Shown here: piece by piece, positions 10,478 to 58,126 of the stretch
How positions within the stretch are numbered: the stretch's first letter is position 1
How the letters are laid out: every line of letters starts with the position of its first letter
DNA from: a virus
IMG/VR virus record: IMGVR_UViG_3300002064_000002
Strand: one strand, 5' to 3'
Length of the DNA stretch: 64,000 nt
Translations under genes and position numbers: made by a program
The notes under the pieces: model-generated
Database searches by the model: none
Seen by the model: the letters and a program-made list of their open reading frames with translations, nothing else
Told to the model about the DNA's origin: nothing

Positions 10478-13400
10478 TTATTGTTTAATCGTTTCAAACA
10501 TAGCTAATGCTAGTTGTACTGTAATCTTACAGTCTTTGTTATTATTCTCTCTTAAATGTACTTTAAACCACTTACCTCTTATATCATTAAACTGGTCTGT
10601 GTTAGTTTTCTGCTTAGCAGGTAATGTATAAGTACATCCATTATCATCCCTGCAAATAAATGGAGGTGTTACTTGTGCATTCTGTAATCCATTAATCCTA
10701 GCAATACATCCCTCCATCAAATTCACTCCTACCTTACCTGGAGGACATACATGGTTTTCATTCTCCGGATCCTTTATGAATGTATCTACCAATCCTGTAG
10801 AATAGCAGTCATTGTATACTAGTACCTGATCAAACCATTCATTCTTCTTAAGGATGGAGCAATCATATCCTCTATACTCTTTCCATTCTGAATAGATCTC
10901 TAGGCTTTGTAGAGTATGTACTTGTATTTCTTTTTTCATCAAAAACCCTATTTCAAATGGATATGTTTTCCCATAGTAAGTATTATAACAATACTTATCA
11001 TTATGCTTCCATAGCCCTTTATCATTCCTGGAAAGGATGTTATTAGGTAAACACATATACTCATCAGGTACAAAGCTATTGTGACTAATAAACTGCTGCA
11101 TAGCTGGTTTATATGTAAGGGTCCATCCTGTATCCTTATCCGTAATATAGATATTGTCAGAACAGTTATCATACGTAGCTATAATCTCTCCATTAGCATA
11201 TTCTTTAAACCATGATCTCATTTCTGCTGATACATCCTGTATTTGATTAGTATAGTTTAAGAACCTCTTTCTCTTCCTATCAAACCAGAATACACCATAC
11301 CTAGTATTAACTATAGAGTTACAATCAATAGTTCCACCAAATCCTGTACATTCATCTGATAGACGTTGTAATCTTCTATCGAATATATTCGGACTTCCAA
11401 GATATATCTCTTGTCCTGAATTAGTAGTAAGACTATCTTCTGGTTGAGTAACATACATAGCATCCTCAAATGCTACTAGAAGTCTATAGTCATCTATGGC
11501 CCTTATACAGGTAAATCTACCATCTTTATTAGAAAACACATGTCTATTAAGTGGAGGAAATGTAAGCCAATTATCCTTACCTCCGTCTACATTTGTCCTA
11601 TTAGAATATATAATCTCATTGTATGCTATTTCTGGATCACATAAATCAACTGTATTTTCTGGTAGATCTTGTCTATGTATCCCATTAAAACAGTACTGTA
11701 AATTATAAAGATGTAATTCTCTGTTATGATAGTCTGTTGCACAAGCTATATCTGCTAAATCTCTAAGAGGATATGGTTGGCTTTCTGCTACTTCTGAACA
11801 AACTCTCCAATCTGAATTAAACTTAGATTCTCCCCAAAAACATGCTACTCCTGTGACATGTGTATAGAATACACCTGGTCTAGATAAGTAATCAGATCTT
11901 GGACTGCCATTTAATCCTGGTATTAATGTTCCAACTATAGTTTCTAAAATATCTATAAGAAGTTGAGTTAATTCTCCGCCTCCTGAATCACTACCATTAA
12001 GGTCATCTGGTACCATATCTCCATCCGCATCATTATCCGCTATCACTCCAAACCCTATAGTATTGATCAGTCGCACTATTGGATCCGGTAGATCAATATT
12101 AATAGGCTTTATACATACTCCTAACTCCTGTATAGGTTCTAATACATAATCATTATCTATAAATGCACTAGATATACCAGGTATAATACCTTGTATAGCT
12201 TTTGCAAATACTGACTTTTGAGTAGTATCCATCCAGTATCTTGTCTCAGCACATAACCAGTTCAGCCTTAAGTTAAAGTCTGTATTAGGGGGTAGTGTTA
12301 AGGGAAGATTAGAAAAGAAAGGTTTCTTCCTTACTACCTGAAATTGACTGATATAAATATCTCCTCCAAATATGCAGCCTGTATCTTCACTCATACTACT
12401 ACAAGTAACTGCTTTAGTTATTCCTGCATTAATACCCTGATACTGATTAGGTAAACTTTGTTTTACTCCTGCATAATATGAAACCGCTTGAATAGGTACT
12501 TCTTCATCTGTTTCTGGATCTGAAGCTGTACTACAGTAGCCAAATGATACTCCTGTATTGCAATCTTCCAAATCGGCATTTTGATCTTGAGGGCAGAATA
12601 CATCTGAATAGAGTAATCTAGTCTTATCCTTTTCACATGGGTTCTCTAAAGGCGCATTAAGCTTTAAGTATCTTGAAAATGCTCCACACCAGTTGTCTAC
12701 TCTAGTTCCATCATTAAGCGTTTGTCTAATAGGTTGTACATCTTGAGAAAGCTCTATAGACCTTCTTATATTTCCTTTCTTTATATTCTTACAGTTATAG
12801 GCATTGTAATCTGCTTTTGCAGTATATTGAATAGCATAATTTCTAGGGGTGATAAAACTCTTTACTATATTATCTGCTGTATTTATACCTTGTGAATAAT
12901 GAAAAAGAAGAGTAGGTAACTGCTCAACAAGAGGTAAGCTATCTATGAAGCCTTGTTGGTCACTACATTCATTAGTAGTAGTTTTTGTTCCAGTAATTAC
13001 ATCTCCTAAGCAAGGGCATTGATCTGCCCATTTTACTGATCTTTGTACTTCTGATAAGCTAGAAAAAGTAGGAGAAGTTTGACTAAAAGTCCCTCCTAAT
13101 AAAGGATTCCCACAGTAAGTACTTGTCTTTCTATTTAGTTCTACTGACACCCAACCATCTGAGTTAACTTGTATAGGACCATATTCTACTATGTTACATG
13201 TAGGTAATGTAACTATTCCACCAAGATTCTGTGTGCATTCTTCTACACAAATAGTTATGCTAGTAGAGCATCCTGCAGTAAGTCCTGATACTCTTAAATG
13301 TAATTCAGCTTGTTTGTTAAATAGCGTTGGATTTATTAAAGCACATGGATTAACAGCATCCATTACTGGGTCTCCTGGTCCATTGGTAATAGCAAATTCA

Positions 13401-15883
13401 GTTACCTTATAGCAATCACCTTGTAAGCCGGTATTAGGATCATTGCCAAACTCATCACATTCACATTTCTCATCTGCTTGTTGAGTGTTAGTTCCTTCTG
13501 TAGTATTCTCTCCTTTAATAGTTCCTGCACTACCTATCTGTATTCCAGTAGGAGGGGCTCCTATTGTACCAGGAACAGTGTTAATAATAATAGGAATACT
13601 AGTAGTAAGCACTGTTCCTGTTATAGGATCAACGGTTACTGTAGCGCCTATGCCACCATTATTAGTAGTATCTTCATCTACAGTTTCTGTAGTATCTACA
13701 TCAGTAATTACTGCAGCTTTTCTAATGCATTCTTTCATTACTTCAGTCTCCTTACATACTTGACCAGAGAGAGCAAATGCAGCTTCTGCTATACCTGCAG
13801 TTTGAGATACTAATTCAGCTAATTGACTTGGTAACTGATATTTAGGATAATCTTTAGTTTCATGATAAAGCCCCTCTACCCTGCCTACTTCTTCAGAGTA
13901 AAGACAAAGTTCTTGTCCATTACCTCCTTTCACATAGTGAATATCCGGAGAATGAAAAGTAAATTCTTGTTGACTATAGTCATTTAACCCAGTCCACTGA
14001 CCAAAGTTATCTCTCTCATTACCAGGATTAGTAAGGAACTGATCCTCACACAGGTCATTGAATGGATAGTTAGGATACTTTACTGGATCTTCCTCACAGG
14101 TCTTTTCTATATTTCCTGTATTAAAAAGTAGTCCTTTATGTAAAATCGATTGGTTCTGCTGTCTATCTTCTACATGAATCTGATATCCTTTAACTGGTAT
14201 AGGATTTCCATTCATGTCTAATGGTGGTTGTATATTCTCAAAAGCAATAGCCATTATATTGACACATGCTTCTCTACACTTTACATCTGGATTAATAAGT
14301 GTATCTGAAGTATCTCCAGAATACTGTAAACTATTATTGTGAATATGCGCTACATTAATAACTGTACCATCGTTTTTAGTATAACTAACACAATTACTAG
14401 GAAATTTATGGTATCTAATTGGCTTACATCTTAGCTCTATACATGGGTAATCTTCAGGATAGAAATAATCTCTACTTTCCCAATACGCGAATAAACCTTC
14501 TGCTTCTACTTCTTCTTCACATTGAGCACAATTTAGTCCTCCTCCTAAAGGATCAAGGCCATCTTCTCCACTTTGTTGTTCATCTACTATATTCACATTT
14601 GTTACTGTAGCTGTATTATATATCTCCCAGTACTTCTTATCAATTTGATCACAGCTTGATTGAGTAACTTCAAAATTATCATTATTTATCTCTGCATTAG
14701 AGTTAGAATCAAATCCAATGTGATCTCCAATAAAAGTACTAAGAGCATCTGATGGTATATGCGTTTTGTGGGACCAAGATCCATTAGGTAACTGCCATGA
14801 GATGTAGTGACTATATACCTCATCTCTCATATAACTAGGATACTTCCCAGCATTACTAGCGCTTACTCTAACACTTTTCCATTTACTTTTTATCTGACAA
14901 GCCTGAGGTCTATAATCAAAATTGAATCCTAACTTAGGTTGTGCAAGGATAAGTGATTCATTATTCACATCAAGAAATTCAGATCCTCTGATATAAGGAC
15001 TTTGCTGAAGTAGTAGTGCGTTTTCTACTATCTGATTTTCATTAGTATCTAATCTATTAATACCTACCTGATTCTGGCTGGCATGAAAATAACCTACTCT
15101 TTGTGCTTCAGTGCCTCTATCTTCTCTATGCGCTATAAGAACTACTTCGTACTGATCAAATGTATCTGATATACATCCTTCAAATTCTATATTGATTCCA
15201 AATGTATTATTGTCTTTATCAAATAACTTGATAACTTGAGGTAGTATATGGTAATCACTAATTCTTTGTCCATTTTCTGTGAATGCTATAGCTATCTGAT
15301 ATACTCCTCCAGGAATAAGGCCTCCTGTATAATTAGTAATAGTTGGACAAGGCCATTTGATGCATCTACTAAGTTCTAATGCTTCACAGTCTACATCTGA
15401 ACTGAATTCATCCTTACAGTCATCACAGTCTGTAAGACTTTTATAAGGAATACATTTCTCTATGTCAAATATCTTAGGTGTAAGGCATTGATTGGTCCAA
15501 TAGATTCTAGGGCTTCCTTCATATAGTTTATATGAACCTACTATTTCATCAGGCGTATGTATACATTCTGAAATGAGCTTGGTAGTACTAGTACAAGTAT
15601 TAGCATCGAACAGATCTATTCTTCCTTTCTCTCCATCATCTAGAATAATAGCAAATCTCTCTTGATCCAATCTTATAGCTCCTCTATATTCCCAACCAGT
15701 AGGAAACTCATAGCATAAGCTATTTCCTAAAACATTCTGTACAAATGAAATATTACCTTCATTTTCATAGCCTGATATATCTCCATTAAGAAGATAATGG
15801 ATATCTCCGCTCTTCTGTAAAAGAGGGTGTTTGTCACTAGAAAGATGTATTCCTGCAAATATGTTCTGTCCTATATTATTCAT
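10478..15883 (-). CDS. Tail muzzle / stabilisation protein (P22 gp10-like crAss family), about 1800 aa
   Basis: Contains YMRDEVYSHYISWQLPNGSWSHKTHIP, IRYHKFP and IIYSN..DNWLTF segments typical of crAss-like tail stabilisation proteins, and follows the ring proteins. Likely start is ATG 15883 (MNNIGQ), overlapping the upstream stop, rather than 15919. Confidence 0.8.
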   Translation of the reverse strand: MNNIGQNIFAGIHLSSDKHPLLQKSGDIHYLLNGDISGYENEGNISFVQNVLGNSLCYEFPTGWEYRGAIRLDQERFAIILDDGEKGRIDLFDANTCTSTTKLISECIHTPDEIVGSYKLYEGSPRIYWTNQCLTPKIFDIEKCIPYKSLTDCDDCKDEFSSDVDCEALELSRCIKWPCPTITNYTGGLIPGGVYQIAIAFTENGQRISDYHILPQVIKLFDKDNNTFGINIEFEGCISDTFDQYEVVLIAHREDRGTEAQRVGYFHASQNQVGINRLDTNENQIVENALLLQQSPYIRGSEFLDVNNESLILAQPKLGFNFDYRPQACQIKSKWKSVRVSASNAGKYPSYMRDEVYSHYISWQLPNGSWSHKTHIPSDALSTFIGDHIGFDSNSNAEINNDNFEVTQSSCDQIDKKYWEIYNTATVTNVNIVDEQQSGEDGLDPLGGGLNCAQCEEEVEAEGLFAYWESRDYFYPEDYPCIELRCKPIRYHKFPSNCVSYTKNDGTVINVAHIHNNSLQYSGDTSDTLINPDVKCREACVNIMAIAFENIQPPLDMNGNPIPVKGYQIHVEDRQQNQSILHKGLLFNTGNIEKTCEEDPVKYPNYPFNDLCEDQFLTNPGNERDNFGQWTGLNDYSQQEFTFHSPDIHYVKGGNGQELCLYSEEVGRVEGLYHETKDYPKYQLPSQLAELVSQTAGIAEAAFALSGQVCKETEVMKECIRKAAVITDVDTTETVDEDTTNNGGIGATVTVDPITGTVLTTSIPIIINTVPGTIGAPPTGIQIGSAGTIKGENTTEGTNTQQADEKCECDEFGNDPNTGLQGDCYKVTEFAITNGPGDPVMDAVNPCALINPTLFNKQAELHLRVSGLTAGCSTSITICVEECTQNLGGIVTLPTCNIVEYGPIQVNSDGWVSVELNRKTSTYCGNPLLGGTFSQTSPTFSSLSEVQRSVKWADQCPCLGDVITGTKTTTNECSDQQGFIDSLPLVEQLPTLLFHYSQGINTADNIVKSFITPRNYAIQYTAKADYNAYNCKNIKKGNIRRSIELSQDVQPIRQTLNDGTRVDNWCGAFSRYLKLNAPLENPCEKDKTRLLYSDVFCPQDQNADLEDCNTGVSFGYCSTASDPETDEEVPIQAVSYYAGVKQSLPNQYQGINAGITKAVTCSSMSEDTGCIFGGDIYISQFQVVRKKPFFSNLPLTLPPNTDFNLRLNWLCAETRYWMDTTQKSVFAKAIQGIIPGISSAFIDNDYVLEPIQELGVCIKPINIDLPDPIVRLINTIGFGVIADNDADGDMVPDDLNGSDSGGGELTQLLIDILETIVGTLIPGLNGSPRSDYLSRPGVFYTHVTGVACFWGESKFNSDWRVCSEVAESQPYPLRDLADIACATDYHNRELHLYNLQYCFNGIHRQDLPENTVDLCDPEIAYNEIIYSNRTNVDGGKDNWLTFPPLNRHVFSNKDGRFTCIRAIDDYRLLVAFEDAMYVTQPEDSLTTNSGQEIYLGSPNIFDRRLQRLSDECTGFGGTIDCNSIVNTRYGVFWFDRKRKRFLNYTNQIQDVSAEMRSWFKEYANGEIIATYDNCSDNIYITDKDTGWTLTYKPAMQQFISHNSFVPDEYMCLPNNILSRNDKGLWKHNDKYCYNTYYGKTYPFEIGFLMKKEIQVHTLQSLEIYSEWKEYRGYDCSILKKNEWFDQVLVYNDCYSTGLVDTFIKDPENENHVCPPGKVGVNLMEGCIARINGLQNAQVTPPFICRDDNGCTYTLPAKQKTNTDQFNDIRGKWFKVHLRENNNKDCKITVQLALAMFETIKQ

Positions 15884-16814
15884 ATCTCTTCGTACTTGGA
15901 GCTGAATAATAACATTCATCCCATATAGCCATTCTATATCTATTAAATCTTCTTATAAATGTATTAGACATATTATAGAATTCCTGGAATTCTGATGCCT
16001 TATATACCATTCTAGCATTTTCTGCCTTTACAAAAAGATCTTGCTTCATATCAGCATATCTTCTTTCCATATTAGGTTCTCCATTCCAATATAAAGTTTG
16101 GACGAGCTCGTGAACCATATCTGCTTTTATCCACTCTTTAATAGTTTCATTATCAGGAATCAAGTAATCATCTGCTGTTTCAAATTCTGCCACATACTCT
16201 ATGTATATCATTCCAGAATCAAAGTTTGTATTGATATGTCCATTTCTAATATCTATTTCATTTTTATTCCTAGACATCATATTTAAACAATCTTTAGCAC
16301 AACTAGGGCTACTTTGCTTTGTAGGACATAAAAGTTCAAAATTAGAATGCGTATATGTTAAGCCCGGTCTATCAAACTTTTGAACTATTTTGTACATGTT
16401 TCCACACTCATCGTGGCATACATCACAAGCTGATTCACATAGGTTTAATTCACAGACATGCTGTTCTTCAGTATATACTGTTTCCTCGAATCTACTATGA
16501 CATCTGGCCTTCTCCTGAAAGCATGCTAATGCTAGTTTTAACTTTCTAAAATCTTCTGGTAATTCTGCTTTACAATTTTCTACTTCCACTACAGTAAACT
16601 TTTGGGGAGCATGGTTCATCTTCAGTTTAGAAAGGCAATACCTGATACGGGCATATAATACAGATTCATCCATAGAGTTCTGCTCGAAGAAGCTAGATAG
16701 CTTATTCTTTACTTCTTCTATAAGATCACTAGCATTACAGTACTCTATGTTAGAGTAGATGTAATCTCTGTTATGTAGATTATATGTAGCTGGCTTAACT
16801 CTCTTTAAACTCAT
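15876..16814 (-). CDS. Tail ring / tubular protein (P22 gp4-like)
   Basis: Conserved position before the muzzle gene; VVEVENCKAELPEDF and GHINTNFDSGMIYIEY..LIPDNE..EWIK pattern. Confidence 0.7.
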   Translation of the reverse strand: MSLKRVKPATYNLHNRDYIYSNIEYCNASDLIEEVKNKLSSFFEQNSMDESVLYARIRYCLSKLKMNHAPQKFTVVEVENCKAELPEDFRKLKLALACFQEKARCHSRFEETVYTEEQHVCELNLCESACDVCHDECGNMYKIVQKFDRPGLTYTHSNFELLCPTKQSSPSCAKDCLNMMSRNKNEIDIRNGHINTNFDSGMIYIEYVAEFETADDYLIPDNETIKEWIKADMVHELVQTLYWNGEPNMERRYADMKQDLFVKAENARMVYKASEFQEFYNMSNTFIRRFNRYRMAIWDECYYSAPSTKRYE

Positions 16815-40824: not shown

Positions 40825-41470
40825 ATTTTCTGTTTTAATGTTAAATTTAATAGTTCAAATATAGTCGAATTCAATAGCAAAACCAAGCATTTGCACAGTT
40901 ATACGCAAAGATGTGCATATATGTGCGCAAAATCTGCACACATGTGTTCAGCAATATTATTAATTATCAGTGAGTTACAAGCATCTCTTCTTTATTCTTT
41001 ATTAGTTCTTCAAACGCTATAAACCAAAAATAAAAAAATTTTCAAAAAATTTCCAACATTCATATTGACATACCCCTACCCAAAACCATATTTACCCGAT
41101 ATATCTAAGTCTAGAAACCATATCTAGCCATCATATCTAAGTACTCTACCTCTGAATGCTACCCTATGAACCGCCATGGGGGTCAGTGTACCTTCGGTAT
41201 TATTAACAATTAAAGACGTTATTATGCCGCGAATACTGTAGTGGACGGAGAACAAGTCTCCATCACAATCAAGAACAAGTTTACACTATGTTCTGGTGTT
41301 GTAGATACCTCTGCCGAGGTATTGGAGATTGGATAAATCCAATCTATGCATGGGCAATCTAACGATTGCCTGTGCATCTTCACCTTTCAGGATGAATAGA
41401 GACTACGTCTAGAATACGCAATAAATTGCCGTATTACAGACAATTCACTAACACATTAAATCATTAGATT

Positions 41471-41659: not shown

Positions 41660-41683
41660 ATACAGTAGCCTTGTAGCTACTGT

Positions 41684-41750
41684 CGTCAACCAGTAGACGT
41701 TAAAATGAAATCTGAAGAGACTGGACGAAACTGCAATTGCAGTCATTTCA
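41684..41750 (+). ncRNA. Type I hammerhead ribozyme
   Basis: Stem I TGAAAT/ATTTCA; core CTGAAGA; stem II G-ACTGGA-C; GAAA; stem III CTGC-AATT-GCAG; GTC cleavage triplet ending at 41744. Loop II ACTGG is complementary to CCAGT in the loop of the upstream hairpin CGTC-AACCAGTA-GACG. Confidence 0.85.
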
Positions 41751-44807: not shown

Positions 44808-45416
44808 ATGAAACTAAATATAAACTTAGGAGAAGATTGGAAAGATAGAGTGTGGTTTACATCAGACTGGCATCTAGGTCATAAGAATATAGTAGGACCT
44901 AGTGTTAGTAAATGGAAATCAGGTTATAGAGATTTTAAATCATTAGATCAGATGAATGATACTATTATTAATAATATCAATTCTCTAGTTATGCCTGATC
45001 ATATTCTTTTTAATGTAGGAGATATTTGTATTAGAGATAACCCTAGATCTTGGTATGATAGAATTAATTGTAATAATAATTACATCTGTGTAGGTAATCA
45101 TGACAGGTTATCAAAATTAAATCAGATTCCAAACGCTATAGTATCAGACATATTTAAAGTAAAATTTAATAATTTAGATTTAAGAGTATTTATGTCTCAT
45201 TATGCGCATAGAGTATGGGATAGATCTCATCACGGAGCATATCACATCTATGGACACTCTCATAATAGTTTAGCAGATGACTGGGGACTAAGTCTAGATG
45301 TTGGTATTGATTCTATATACGCTAAATTTGGAGAGTATAGGCCAATATCTTACAAAGAATTAGAAAACTATATGAAAAGCCGTGAAATTAAAGCGGTGGA
45401 CCACCATAGAAAATAG
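44808..45416 (+). CDS. Calcineurin-like metallophosphoesterase
   Basis: FTSDWHLGH, VGDI, VGNHD, MSHY and IYGHSH. Confidence 0.85.
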   Translation: MKLNINLGEDWKDRVWFTSDWHLGHKNIVGPSVSKWKSGYRDFKSLDQMNDTIINNINSLVMPDHILFNVGDICIRDNPRSWYDRINCNNNYICVGNHDRLSKLNQIPNAIVSDIFKVKFNNLDLRVFMSHYAHRVWDRSHHGAYHIYGHSHNSLADDWGLSLDVGIDSIYAKFGEYRPISYKELENYMKSREIKAVDHHRK

Positions 45417-45698: not shown

Positions 45699-46010
45699 AT
45701 GTTAAGTTTATTCAACCAGACTGGTCCAGTACCAGCATTAGACAAAATAGAACCATTAAGAATGGCAGCACTTATGTCTCACTTTGTAGACATGAGAGTA
45801 TTTGAAGAACGTTATGGCCGTGATATATTACAAAAAGCTATTGCAGATGGTGTATTTAGCTATGTCATTACAGAACAAGGTGATATTAATGCTAAAATGT
45901 GCAATCCTTCTGCTATATATCAGCAGATATTTCCAGATTATATGAGAGAGATGTTTATTAAAGCATTTGCTCCTAAGTTTGATATCAATCGTTTTACAAA
46001 TTTAAATTAA
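45699..46010 (+). CDS. Hypothetical protein
   Basis: Start moved to ATG 45699, which follows the hairpin and A-rich leader. Confidence 0.5.
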   Translation: MLSLFNQTGPVPALDKIEPLRMAALMSHFVDMRVFEERYGRDILQKAIADGVFSYVITEQGDINAKMCNPSAIYQQIFPDYMREMFIKAFAPKFDINRFTNLN

Positions 46011-46075
46011 GAATTCAATCAGAGTTGAACCTGTTCCTCAATGTCATAGGGTTCTGAGTTCTTCTCTGGTTTTAC

Positions 46076-46131
46076 GGGGCAGTGCAAGAGATATCATGGG
46101 ATATCCAAGGGTTCGACTCCCTTCTGCTCCA
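46076..46131 (+). ncRNA. 56 nt tRNA-like mini-RNA with Ala-type acceptor, no D stem and no anticodon loop
   Basis: Acceptor GGGGCAG/CTGCTCC with G3-U70 and A73; T arm AAGGG-TTCGACT-CCCTT; central hairpin GATATC-ATGG-GATATC; no encoded CCA. Confidence 0.7.
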
Positions 46132-46224
46132 CAATAGAATATAAACCAGACTGCTTTAAATAGCACCACACGCTTAATGTGGGTCTGGTTTTATTCATAA
46201 TATTTATTATTAACAATTAAATCA

Positions 46225-46803
46225 TTGATAATGAAGAAAATACAGACAATATTTGATAGAAATTGGGAAGAAGATCGCAAATGCATAGATAAATTAATAG
46301 TAGATGCTGAAGATTTGTACGATTGTTTTGCTACTGAGAAAATAGATGGCACTAATATCAGAGTAACTATCAGGTCTGGTAAAGTAATGAGAGTAGAAAA
46401 GAGAAGAAATCCATCCAAGCAGCAGAAAGCTGAAGGTATAGTTGAGCCATGGTATGTAGATGCGTCCAGACAGGAAAACCAAGACAAATGGATATTCGAT
46501 GCAGTAGATTCTACAGATTTTAGTGAGATAAAGGATGGTGAATGGAGTGCTGAAGCATTTGGAGAAAACATACAAGGAAATCCTTTACAGTTGAAAGGCA
46601 ATCAAGTATTTGTATTTAGTTGTAAAGAACAGTTGAAGAAGATTACTTTTAAAACCAGACCTACATCATTTCAAGAACTGAAAGCACACCTTAAAGAACT
46701 TAAATCTTTTTTTAATCCTGAAGTAGGTATAGAAGGTATAGTTTGGCATAATCTACATTATGATGATATGTACAAGATAAAAGTCAAAGACTTTACTTAT
46801 TAA
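46225..46803 (+). CDS. ATP-dependent RNA ligase-like nucleotidyltransferase
   Basis: Motif I TEKIDGTNIR, EAFGENIQGN, motif IV IEGIVW, motif V YKIKVKDF. Confidence 0.8.
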   Translation: MIMKKIQTIFDRNWEEDRKCIDKLIVDAEDLYDCFATEKIDGTNIRVTIRSGKVMRVEKRRNPSKQQKAEGIVEPWYVDASRQENQDKWIFDAVDSTDFSEIKDGEWSAEAFGENIQGNPLQLKGNQVFVFSCKEQLKKITFKTRPTSFQELKAHLKELKSFFNPEVGIEGIVWHNLHYDDMYKIKVKDFTY

Positions 46804-57930: not shown

Positions 57931-57982
57931 AGATGTCTTTTAATTGTTAGCCCTCTCATCAGAAATGGTGAGGGGGTGTTTT

Positions 57983-58126
57983 GGGAGGATGGCGGAATGG
58001 TAGACGCTAACCGGTCACTGGCGGTGAGAGTAGTTTAATTAGTTAAATAGTAACTGTATCCAGTAGAGCAGTGAAGGACTGATGTAACGTAATAACTCGT
58101 AGAGGTTCGATTCCTCTTCCTTCCCA
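57983..58126 (+). ncRNA. 144 nt tRNA-like RNA with class II D arm, no canonical anticodon loop and an expanded middle region
   Basis: Acceptor GGGAGGA/TCCTTCC(C); D arm GCG-GAATGGTAGA-CGC; T arm AGAGG-TTCGATT-CCTCT; about 90 nt lie between the D and T arms. Confidence 0.7.

Follow-up and report, generated by a model that had tools for sequence, protein, structure and literature searches.

A putative tRNA-Ala-derived, anticodon-less tRNA mimic gene in an uncultured crAss-like phage

What does a phage encode when a short stretch of DNA at the end of one of its operons folds like the top half of a tRNA and offers no anticodon? A tRNA-like element of this kind, 56 nt long, lies at 46076-46131 (+) of the 64,000-nt stretch of viral DNA analyzed here (the window; IMG/VR record IMGVR_UViG_3300002064_000002). 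The window has matches to Pfam CrAss_Ring_1/2 and DNA polymerase A and belongs to an uncultured crAss-like phage; our profile scan covered 34 ORFs of the window, and the complete genome is ~139 kb. We propose, with a probability of roughly 0.5, that the element is an RNA gene specific to this lineage and built from the top half of a Bacteroidota-type tRNA-Ala(CGC), and that its product is a processed tRNA mimic that is probably chargeable with alanine.

The initial annotation had described the element as an acceptor stem, a linker, a tetraloop hairpin and a T arm, and both its presence and this anatomy are confirmed by the sequence and by the minimum free energy (MFE) fold. The element starts with the 5′ strand of a 7-bp acceptor stem (46076-46082, +), followed by an unpaired 7-nt linker, UGCAAGA (46083-46089, +), a 6-bp inner hairpin with the tetraloop AUGG (46090-46105, +), a single connector base between the inner hairpin and the T arm (46106, +), a 5-bp T stem closing the loop UUCGACU (46107-46123, +), the acceptor 3′ strand (46124-46130, +) and the discriminator A73 (46131, +). 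The trinucleotide UCC stands directly 5′ of the T stem. This arrangement as a whole is the MFE structure (-20.7 kcal/mol, z -1.96), and it is retained when the element is folded with 201 nt of context (z -4.2). All 18 helical pairs are standard, with G3-U70 as the sole G-U. The linker replaces the D arm, and the inner hairpin, with its 4-nt loop, stands where the anticodon arm would be. No 7-nt anticodon loop exists in any register of the element, which is without an anticodon, and its product cannot decode. Two candidate readings along these lines were set aside: a decoding, D-armless tRNA is ruled out by the impossibility of a 7-nt anticodon loop, and UGC within the linker as an anticodon remnant was dropped because no alignment supports it.

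The shape by itself is weak evidence, since dinucleotide-shuffled windows contain on average 0.37 copies of a T arm joined to a 7/7 acceptor stem. Among random 24-mers, ~9-13% form a 6-bp stem once G-U pairs are counted. The inner hairpin is the palindrome GATATC directly repeated 10 nt apart, a direct repeat that a 10-nt duplication could generate. Together with its flanking hairpins, the element forms an island of 43-47% G+C amid DNA of ~30% G+C. As the initial annotation had expected, standard finders made little of it: ARAGORN called neither a tRNA nor a tmRNA at the element, and Rfam returned below-threshold matches only, with mascRNA (RF01684) at 22.2 bits against a required 42.5 and the tmRNA model (RF00023), on the 3′ half only, at 17-21.3 bits against a gathering threshold of 47.

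The acceptor-stem determinants of alanine identity in bacteria are A73, G2-C71, G3.U70 and G4-C69, and a fifth determinant is G20 (PMC9976931). The element has all four acceptor-stem determinants, so the alanine identity previously read from G3-U70 was correct and can be widened to the full acceptor-stem set; G20 has no counterpart because the element is without a D loop. It had also been noted that CCA would have to be added, and this too is right: the bases that flank A73 on its 3′ side are CAA, and CCA is not encoded. An acceptor/T-arm minihelix is enough for recognition by RNase P, the CCA-adding enzyme, AlaRS and EF-Tu. Synthetic alanine minihelices, reportedly described by Francklyn and Schimmel in 1989 (cited in PMC9976931), resemble the element in being a coaxial acceptor/T-arm unit, and differ from it in being laboratory constructs. 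Any RNA made from the element can probably be charged with alanine.

The origin of the element can be read from its two ends. An exact scan for its 24-nt 3′ half in one genome for each of 185,579 prokaryotic species gave 16 exact genomic matches (L135-L150), every one of them in a tRNA-Ala(CGC) gene and none in a tmRNA gene; six of the matching genes come from taxa labelled Bacteroidota or Flavobacteriales, and one from Ignavibacteria. Chance is excluded because the sequence of the 24-nt 3′ half matches tRNA-Ala(CGC) genes only. The first 8 nt of the element, which comprise the acceptor 5′ strand and U8, are common to all 16 of these genes. Over the whole top half, 32 of 33 positions are identical between the element and tRNA-Ala(CGC), and the sole change, G49 to A, turns the T-stem pair G49-U65 into A49-U65 and strengthens it. 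Unrelated sequence stands in place of tRNA positions 9-48 (D arm, anticodon arm and variable loop), and the 24 nt that lie between U8 and the T stem show, judged by eye, no likeness to tRNA genes. Bacteroidota copies of tRNA-Ala(CGC) also resemble the element in having C alone after the discriminator and no encoded CCA. These and the other tRNA-Ala(CGC) genes therefore have the same 5′ 8 nt, 3′ 24 nt, alanine identity set and T loop as the element, whereas they retain positions 9-48, an anticodon and G49.

The initial annotation had likened the element to the tRNA-like domain of tmRNA with the mRNA part removed. That comparison stands for the topology and does not stand for the origin: the nearest crAss-phage tmRNA, that of cr106_1, agrees with the element at 23 of 25 positions of the 3′ half and 6 of 8 at the 5′ end, 29/33 in all, versus 32/33 for tRNA-Ala(CGC). 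A tmRNA D-loop analogue (GG...UCGAC) and a GAC-type junction before the T arm are found in the cr106_1 RNA and in the RNA of mycobacteriophage DS6A discussed below. Both are absent from the linker and pre-T-stem bases of the element, and its position 8 is U, as in tRNAs, which likewise argues against a tmRNA-like reading. Because the element is without both tmRNA motifs, its likeness to the tRNA-like domain of tmRNA is one of topology only. By sequence, what the phage carries is a tRNA-Ala(CGC) top half rather than a cut-down tmRNA. We also considered a full or permuted tmRNA built around the element and rejected it: there is no 5′ partner upstream, an ORF fills the space and nothing scored at gathering level.

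Among known RNAs, the nearest parallel is the TLD-only tmRNA of Mycobacterium phage DS6A (PMC4131195; PMC11915505), which we located at JN698994 28478-28557. The DS6A tmRNA is listed as 'TLD only', and a DS6A-like molecule strongly inhibits tmRNA, perhaps by titration of SmpB (PMC4131195); CDS-less tmRNAs of ~65 bp are found in some plastids (PMC11915505). The DS6A RNA and the element are both phage-encoded and anticodon-less, both have a 7-bp acceptor with G3-U70, A73 and a T arm, and both carry a helix in place of the anticodon arm. The two phages also both encode an RNA ligase, which in DS6A is RtcB. The DS6A RNA, however, is 80 nt long rather than 56 nt and has the GG...UCGAC analogue and a longer P2-like helix, whereas the element has a 7-nt linker without GG, U8 and tRNA-Ala(CGC)-derived sequence. 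Inhibition of tmRNA is a property shown for the DS6A-like molecule, not for the element.

Full tmRNA genes are present in the human-gut crAss-like phages cr106_1, in a standard form of 304 nt (L127 2225-2528), and cr60_1, in a permuted form (L128 2431-2877). These phages are of the same virus order as the window phage, and their tmRNAs share with the element the acceptor-stem type with G3-U70 and a T arm that agrees at 23/25, but they are RNAs of 300-450 nt with a tag reading frame and pseudoknots, while the element has neither a message part nor a D-loop analogue. In cr106_1, 2.2 kb separate the tmRNA gene from a TROVE (Ro60-like) gene downstream of it, a pairing that points to an RNA quality-control island. 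The scan of 34 window ORFs detected neither an SmpB gene nor a Ro gene.

The element ends a unit of genes that runs, in order, from a metallophosphoesterase gene (phrog_547; 44808..45416, +) through a gene for a small membrane protein to an orphan ORF of 103-127 aa (45699..46010, +) directly upstream of the element, the homologues of which are its own strain variants only. The stop codon of the orphan ORF is 65 nt away from the element, and between the two the DNA folds into a hairpin ending in a U-run (46017..46073, +), 2 nt before the RNase P site that we predict between 46075 and 46076. This upstream hairpin may terminate transcription ahead of the element, for which no promoter of its own was identified. 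On the other side, an intrinsic-terminator-like compound hairpin with a U-run (46143..46195, +), a strong host-type terminator that begins 12 nt downstream of the element, closes the transcription unit. The hairpin, from 46145 to 46194, is also matched by another contig of the source sample (run X2), which continues into unrelated sequence starting GGGGCTGCGC; the terminator hairpin may be a unit repeated elsewhere in the phage or in a relative.

Past the terminator, the recurrent motif TTATTAACAATTAAA (46207..46221, +) lies 10 nt before the ATG of a gene for an RLIG1/DUF5565-type ATP-dependent RNA ligase (phrog_14301; 46231..46803, +), whose relatives are mostly from Bacteroidota. Thirteen copies of TTATTAACAATTAAA are present in the window versus 1.4 expected (at 41200, 46207, 52407, 54480 and 59543, with 8 near-copies); most of them lie among the small genes beyond 41 kb, on the + strand, and at both sites checked (41200 and 46207) the motif ends 10 nt before an ATG. 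We regard TTATTAACAATTAAA as a candidate phage promoter or translation leader. Since the ligase gene has this motif of its own upstream, the element ends the phosphoesterase unit and stands outside the ligase unit.

Several other structured RNA features were seen in the window. A second tRNA-derived element, 144 nt long, is found at 57983-58126 (+); on the 5′ side its likeness to phage tRNA-Leu genes covers the 5′ end and the D arm, and on the 3′ side it takes in the T arm and the 3′ end. It has kept a perfect acceptor stem and T arm, while its middle is disrupted and without a normal anticodon arm, and neither ARAGORN nor Rfam made a call there. It starts right after a GC-rich hairpin with a U-run (57951-57982). 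A RAGATH-1 hammerhead ribozyme at 41683-41749 (+) scores 58.3 bits, above the Rfam gathering threshold, and sits between genes in the + strand block that also holds the 56-nt element. The hammerhead and the two tRNA-like elements together suggest that transcripts of this phage are cut at defined points. A tRNA-Pyl(cta) that ARAGORN called at 15591-15677 (-), inside a 1813-aa ORF (10478-15919), is probably a false positive.

The element itself appears to be confined to one lineage. The locus DNA had no match among GenBank phages, and the element alone hit only the T arms of tRNA-Ala and tmRNA genes there. Exact and degenerate patterns in IMG/VR recovered normal tRNA-Ala genes, chance matches and unrelated mini elements, with no orthologue among them; no close relative came up in IMG/VR when the ligase, the upstream ORF or the capsid protein served as query, and the capsid protein has one distant relative in GenBank at 26% identity. 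A pattern scan of metagenome contigs for an orthologue returned 4 unrelated mini elements only. Across GenBank phages, IMG/VR and metagenome contigs, then, the element has no orthologue beyond strain variants, and it follows that neither covariation nor conservation speaks for it. The strain variants come from assemblies L231 and L232 and from a second run of the source sample (X2), with ~1.3% divergence around the locus. The element is identical in all of them, which is uninformative because 0.75 SNPs would be expected in 56 nt at 1.3%. The only two strain SNPs nearby are both in the upstream hairpin, where 46064 C>T retains the pair as G-U and 46057 A>G falls in a bulge.

How might such an element work? 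We envisage that it would be transcribed as the tail of the phosphoesterase operon, that RNase P would cut the transcript at G46076 and that RNase Z or exonucleases would cut after A46131, with the result that the upstream mRNA would end in a protective hairpin. The released RNA would receive its CCA from the host CCA-adding enzyme, as must the product of a Bacteroidota tRNA-Ala(CGC) gene without encoded CCA, and AlaRS would charge it, as it does alanine minihelices. The RNA would then most likely act as a mimic, occupying a factor that reads the acceptor/T-arm portion of tRNA-Ala or tmRNA, the candidates being the trans-translation machinery, AlaRS or an acceptor-arm toxin. The initial annotation had suggested titration of SmpB, AlaRS or EF-Tu, release of stalled ribosomes without tagging, or service as a nuclease decoy, all of them candidate roles. 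Since the element lacks the tmRNA D-loop features, titration of SmpB is a less probable role for it than for RNAs of the DS6A type. The mimicry would be analogous to that of the DS6A TLD-only tmRNA and independent of it in origin. A top half matched at 32 of 33 positions around an unrelated 24-nt middle is the pattern to be expected if the top half alone were maintained.

A more elaborate version of this reading, which we offer as a speculation with the odds well against it, would make the element a two-purpose unit, carved in a crAss-like phage from a host-type tRNA-Ala(CGC). It would serve as the RNase P/Z cut site for a hairpin-protected operon end and also release an Ala-minihelix that interferes with host ribosome rescue or with an acceptor-arm toxin; selection would act on the charged acceptor/T-arm, and phages would have built such mimics more than once.

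A serious rival to the preferred reading, somewhat unlikely in our estimation, is that the element is a dead remnant: a tRNA-Ala(CGC) gene, captured from a host of the Bacteroidota or inherited with an older phage tRNA array, whose middle was recently deleted or replaced and which has yet to decay. The lack of orthologues and of conservation evidence speaks for a remnant, the interior of the element has no tRNA similarity and a hairpin that a short duplication can explain, and the other tRNA-like gene of this phage, at 57983-58126, is likewise aberrant. In addition, the nearest viral relative of the ligase (L151, 58% identity) lies within a tRNA array, and tRNAs are found within 3 kb at 7 of 80 viral ligase loci. 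Decay, however, sits poorly with 32 of 33 retained positions matching while 40 nt were fully replaced, and with perfect acceptor and T stems in both aberrant tRNA-like genes; the AT pressure of a compact genome of 30% G+C should erode a G+C-rich 56-mer, and this one is neatly placed between two structured elements. Alternatively, the tRNA shape might act in cis only, recruiting RNase P and RNase Z to give the operon a defined, hairpin-protected 3′ end, after which the released RNA would have no role. The model for such an arrangement is MALAT1/mascRNA: mascRNA, itself tRNA-like, is released by cleavage at the 3′ end of a longer precursor, and it gave the best full-length Rfam shape match to the element, at a sub-threshold 22 bits; it is, on the other hand, a vertebrate nuclear RNA. 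The position of the element in a 3′ UTR, right after a hairpin with a U-run, is repeated in layout at 57983-58126, and the hammerhead occupies another intergenic gap of the same block. crAss-like phages moreover transcribe with their own RNA polymerases, for which we know of no described terminators. Yet a strong host-type terminator only 12 nt downstream means that processing is not obviously needed, and we consider a role in cis alone unlikely.

The neighboring genes raise a different possibility, namely that the element belongs to an RNA-repair counter-defence module and is a decoy or cofactor that works with the phosphoesterase, 660 nt upstream, and the RNA ligase, which starts 100 nt downstream, against tRNA-cleaving nucleases. 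DS6A, with its RtcB, might be taken as a parallel. This association of the element with RNA-repair enzymes is not conserved: a mini element was found at none of 80 viral loci with related ligases and at none of the four loci of 48%-identical phosphoesterases (where tRNAs were also 0/4), and none of 10 records carrying other mini elements had a phrog_547 or PF12850 match, that is, a metallophosphoesterase. The element moreover has no anticodon loop with which to bait anticodon nucleases, and the ligase has its own upstream motif, so we regard the module as quite improbable. Only slightly better placed, and still improbable, is a strict TLD-only tmRNA, a reduced form that would bind SmpB and stop or divert trans-translation, in line with the proposal for DS6A. 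It would account for the shared topology (acceptor, single-stranded stretch, helix, T arm) with G3-U70, for the 23/25 match of a crAss-like phage tmRNA to the 3′ half and for the tmRNA model being the best clan match on that half, but tRNA-Ala(CGC) is the closer relative and the source of all 16 exact matches, U8 is tRNA-like, both tmRNA motifs are missing and the covariance-model score is 21 bits against a threshold of 47. The identity block might finally matter as DNA, as the attP core for integration into a host tRNA-Ala(CGC) gene. A block of 24-25 nt that runs from the T stem to one base beyond the discriminator matches the 3′ end of the tRNA gene without a difference, and an attP core of the T-loop type has this size and position. 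An attP site has no need of the 8-nt 5′ acceptor strand, however, which is present and perfectly paired; no integrase is adjacent to the element, whose neighbors are the orphan ORF and the ligase, or among the 34 window ORFs scanned; and crAss-like phages rarely integrate. Given the 5′ acceptor strand and the lack of an integrase in that scan, we judge this very unlikely.

One of the phages with a 48%-identical phosphoesterase, represented by a 108.9-kb contig (L235), encodes two aminoacyl-tRNA synthetase-like genes, RecA and GreA.

If the preferred reading is right, and the RNA is made and charged, the element would represent a second evolutionary route, from tRNA-Ala and not from tmRNA, to phage 'top-half' mimics, which are so far known from one mycobacteriophage and would be extended to the crAss-like phages of Bacteroidota. 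Blocking ribosome rescue, or baiting defences directed at the acceptor arm, would then be a new layer of phage-host conflict. The element belongs to a little-described class of phage tRNA mimics, for which this instance offers no more than an anatomy and an origin; what is new here is the tRNA-Ala-derived, D-loop-less form of the phage mimic in a crAss-like phage.

Other Ala-type mini elements, 49-62 nt in length, were found at at least 24 phage or metagenome loci, 20 of them in IMG/VR with a loose pattern and 4 in metagenomes with a second pattern (the loci include L102, L088, L019, L111, L080, L006, L012, L014, L029, L063, L070, L037, L122 and L129-L132), and the class appears to be common in viral metagenomes. 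All of them resemble the element in combining a perfect acceptor stem, G3-U70, A73 and a T arm with the lack of an anticodon, and the 20 from IMG/VR are, as the element is, solitary and outside tRNA arrays. ARAGORN called 0 of these 20. The standard tRNA and tmRNA finders missed every such element on which they were run here, which means that these elements go unannotated. Unlike the shared top half, the interiors are unrelated to that of the element, as are the host phages, and no protein is common to the window and the other mini-element loci. Some of the other mini elements have tmRNA-type motifs and others a D arm, differences which imply that the class has several origins. One family (L014) recurs in cultured Microbacterium phages (Armstrong, Brahms, Skylord and others), where it is unannotated and sits ~600 nt from the right genome end. 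At two further loci, L092 (~676-736) and L089, tRNA-Ala-like genes have kept the D arm and lost the anticodon arm alone, and the L092 element adjoins intact tRNA-Ala genes; these forms are another route to anticodon-less elements.
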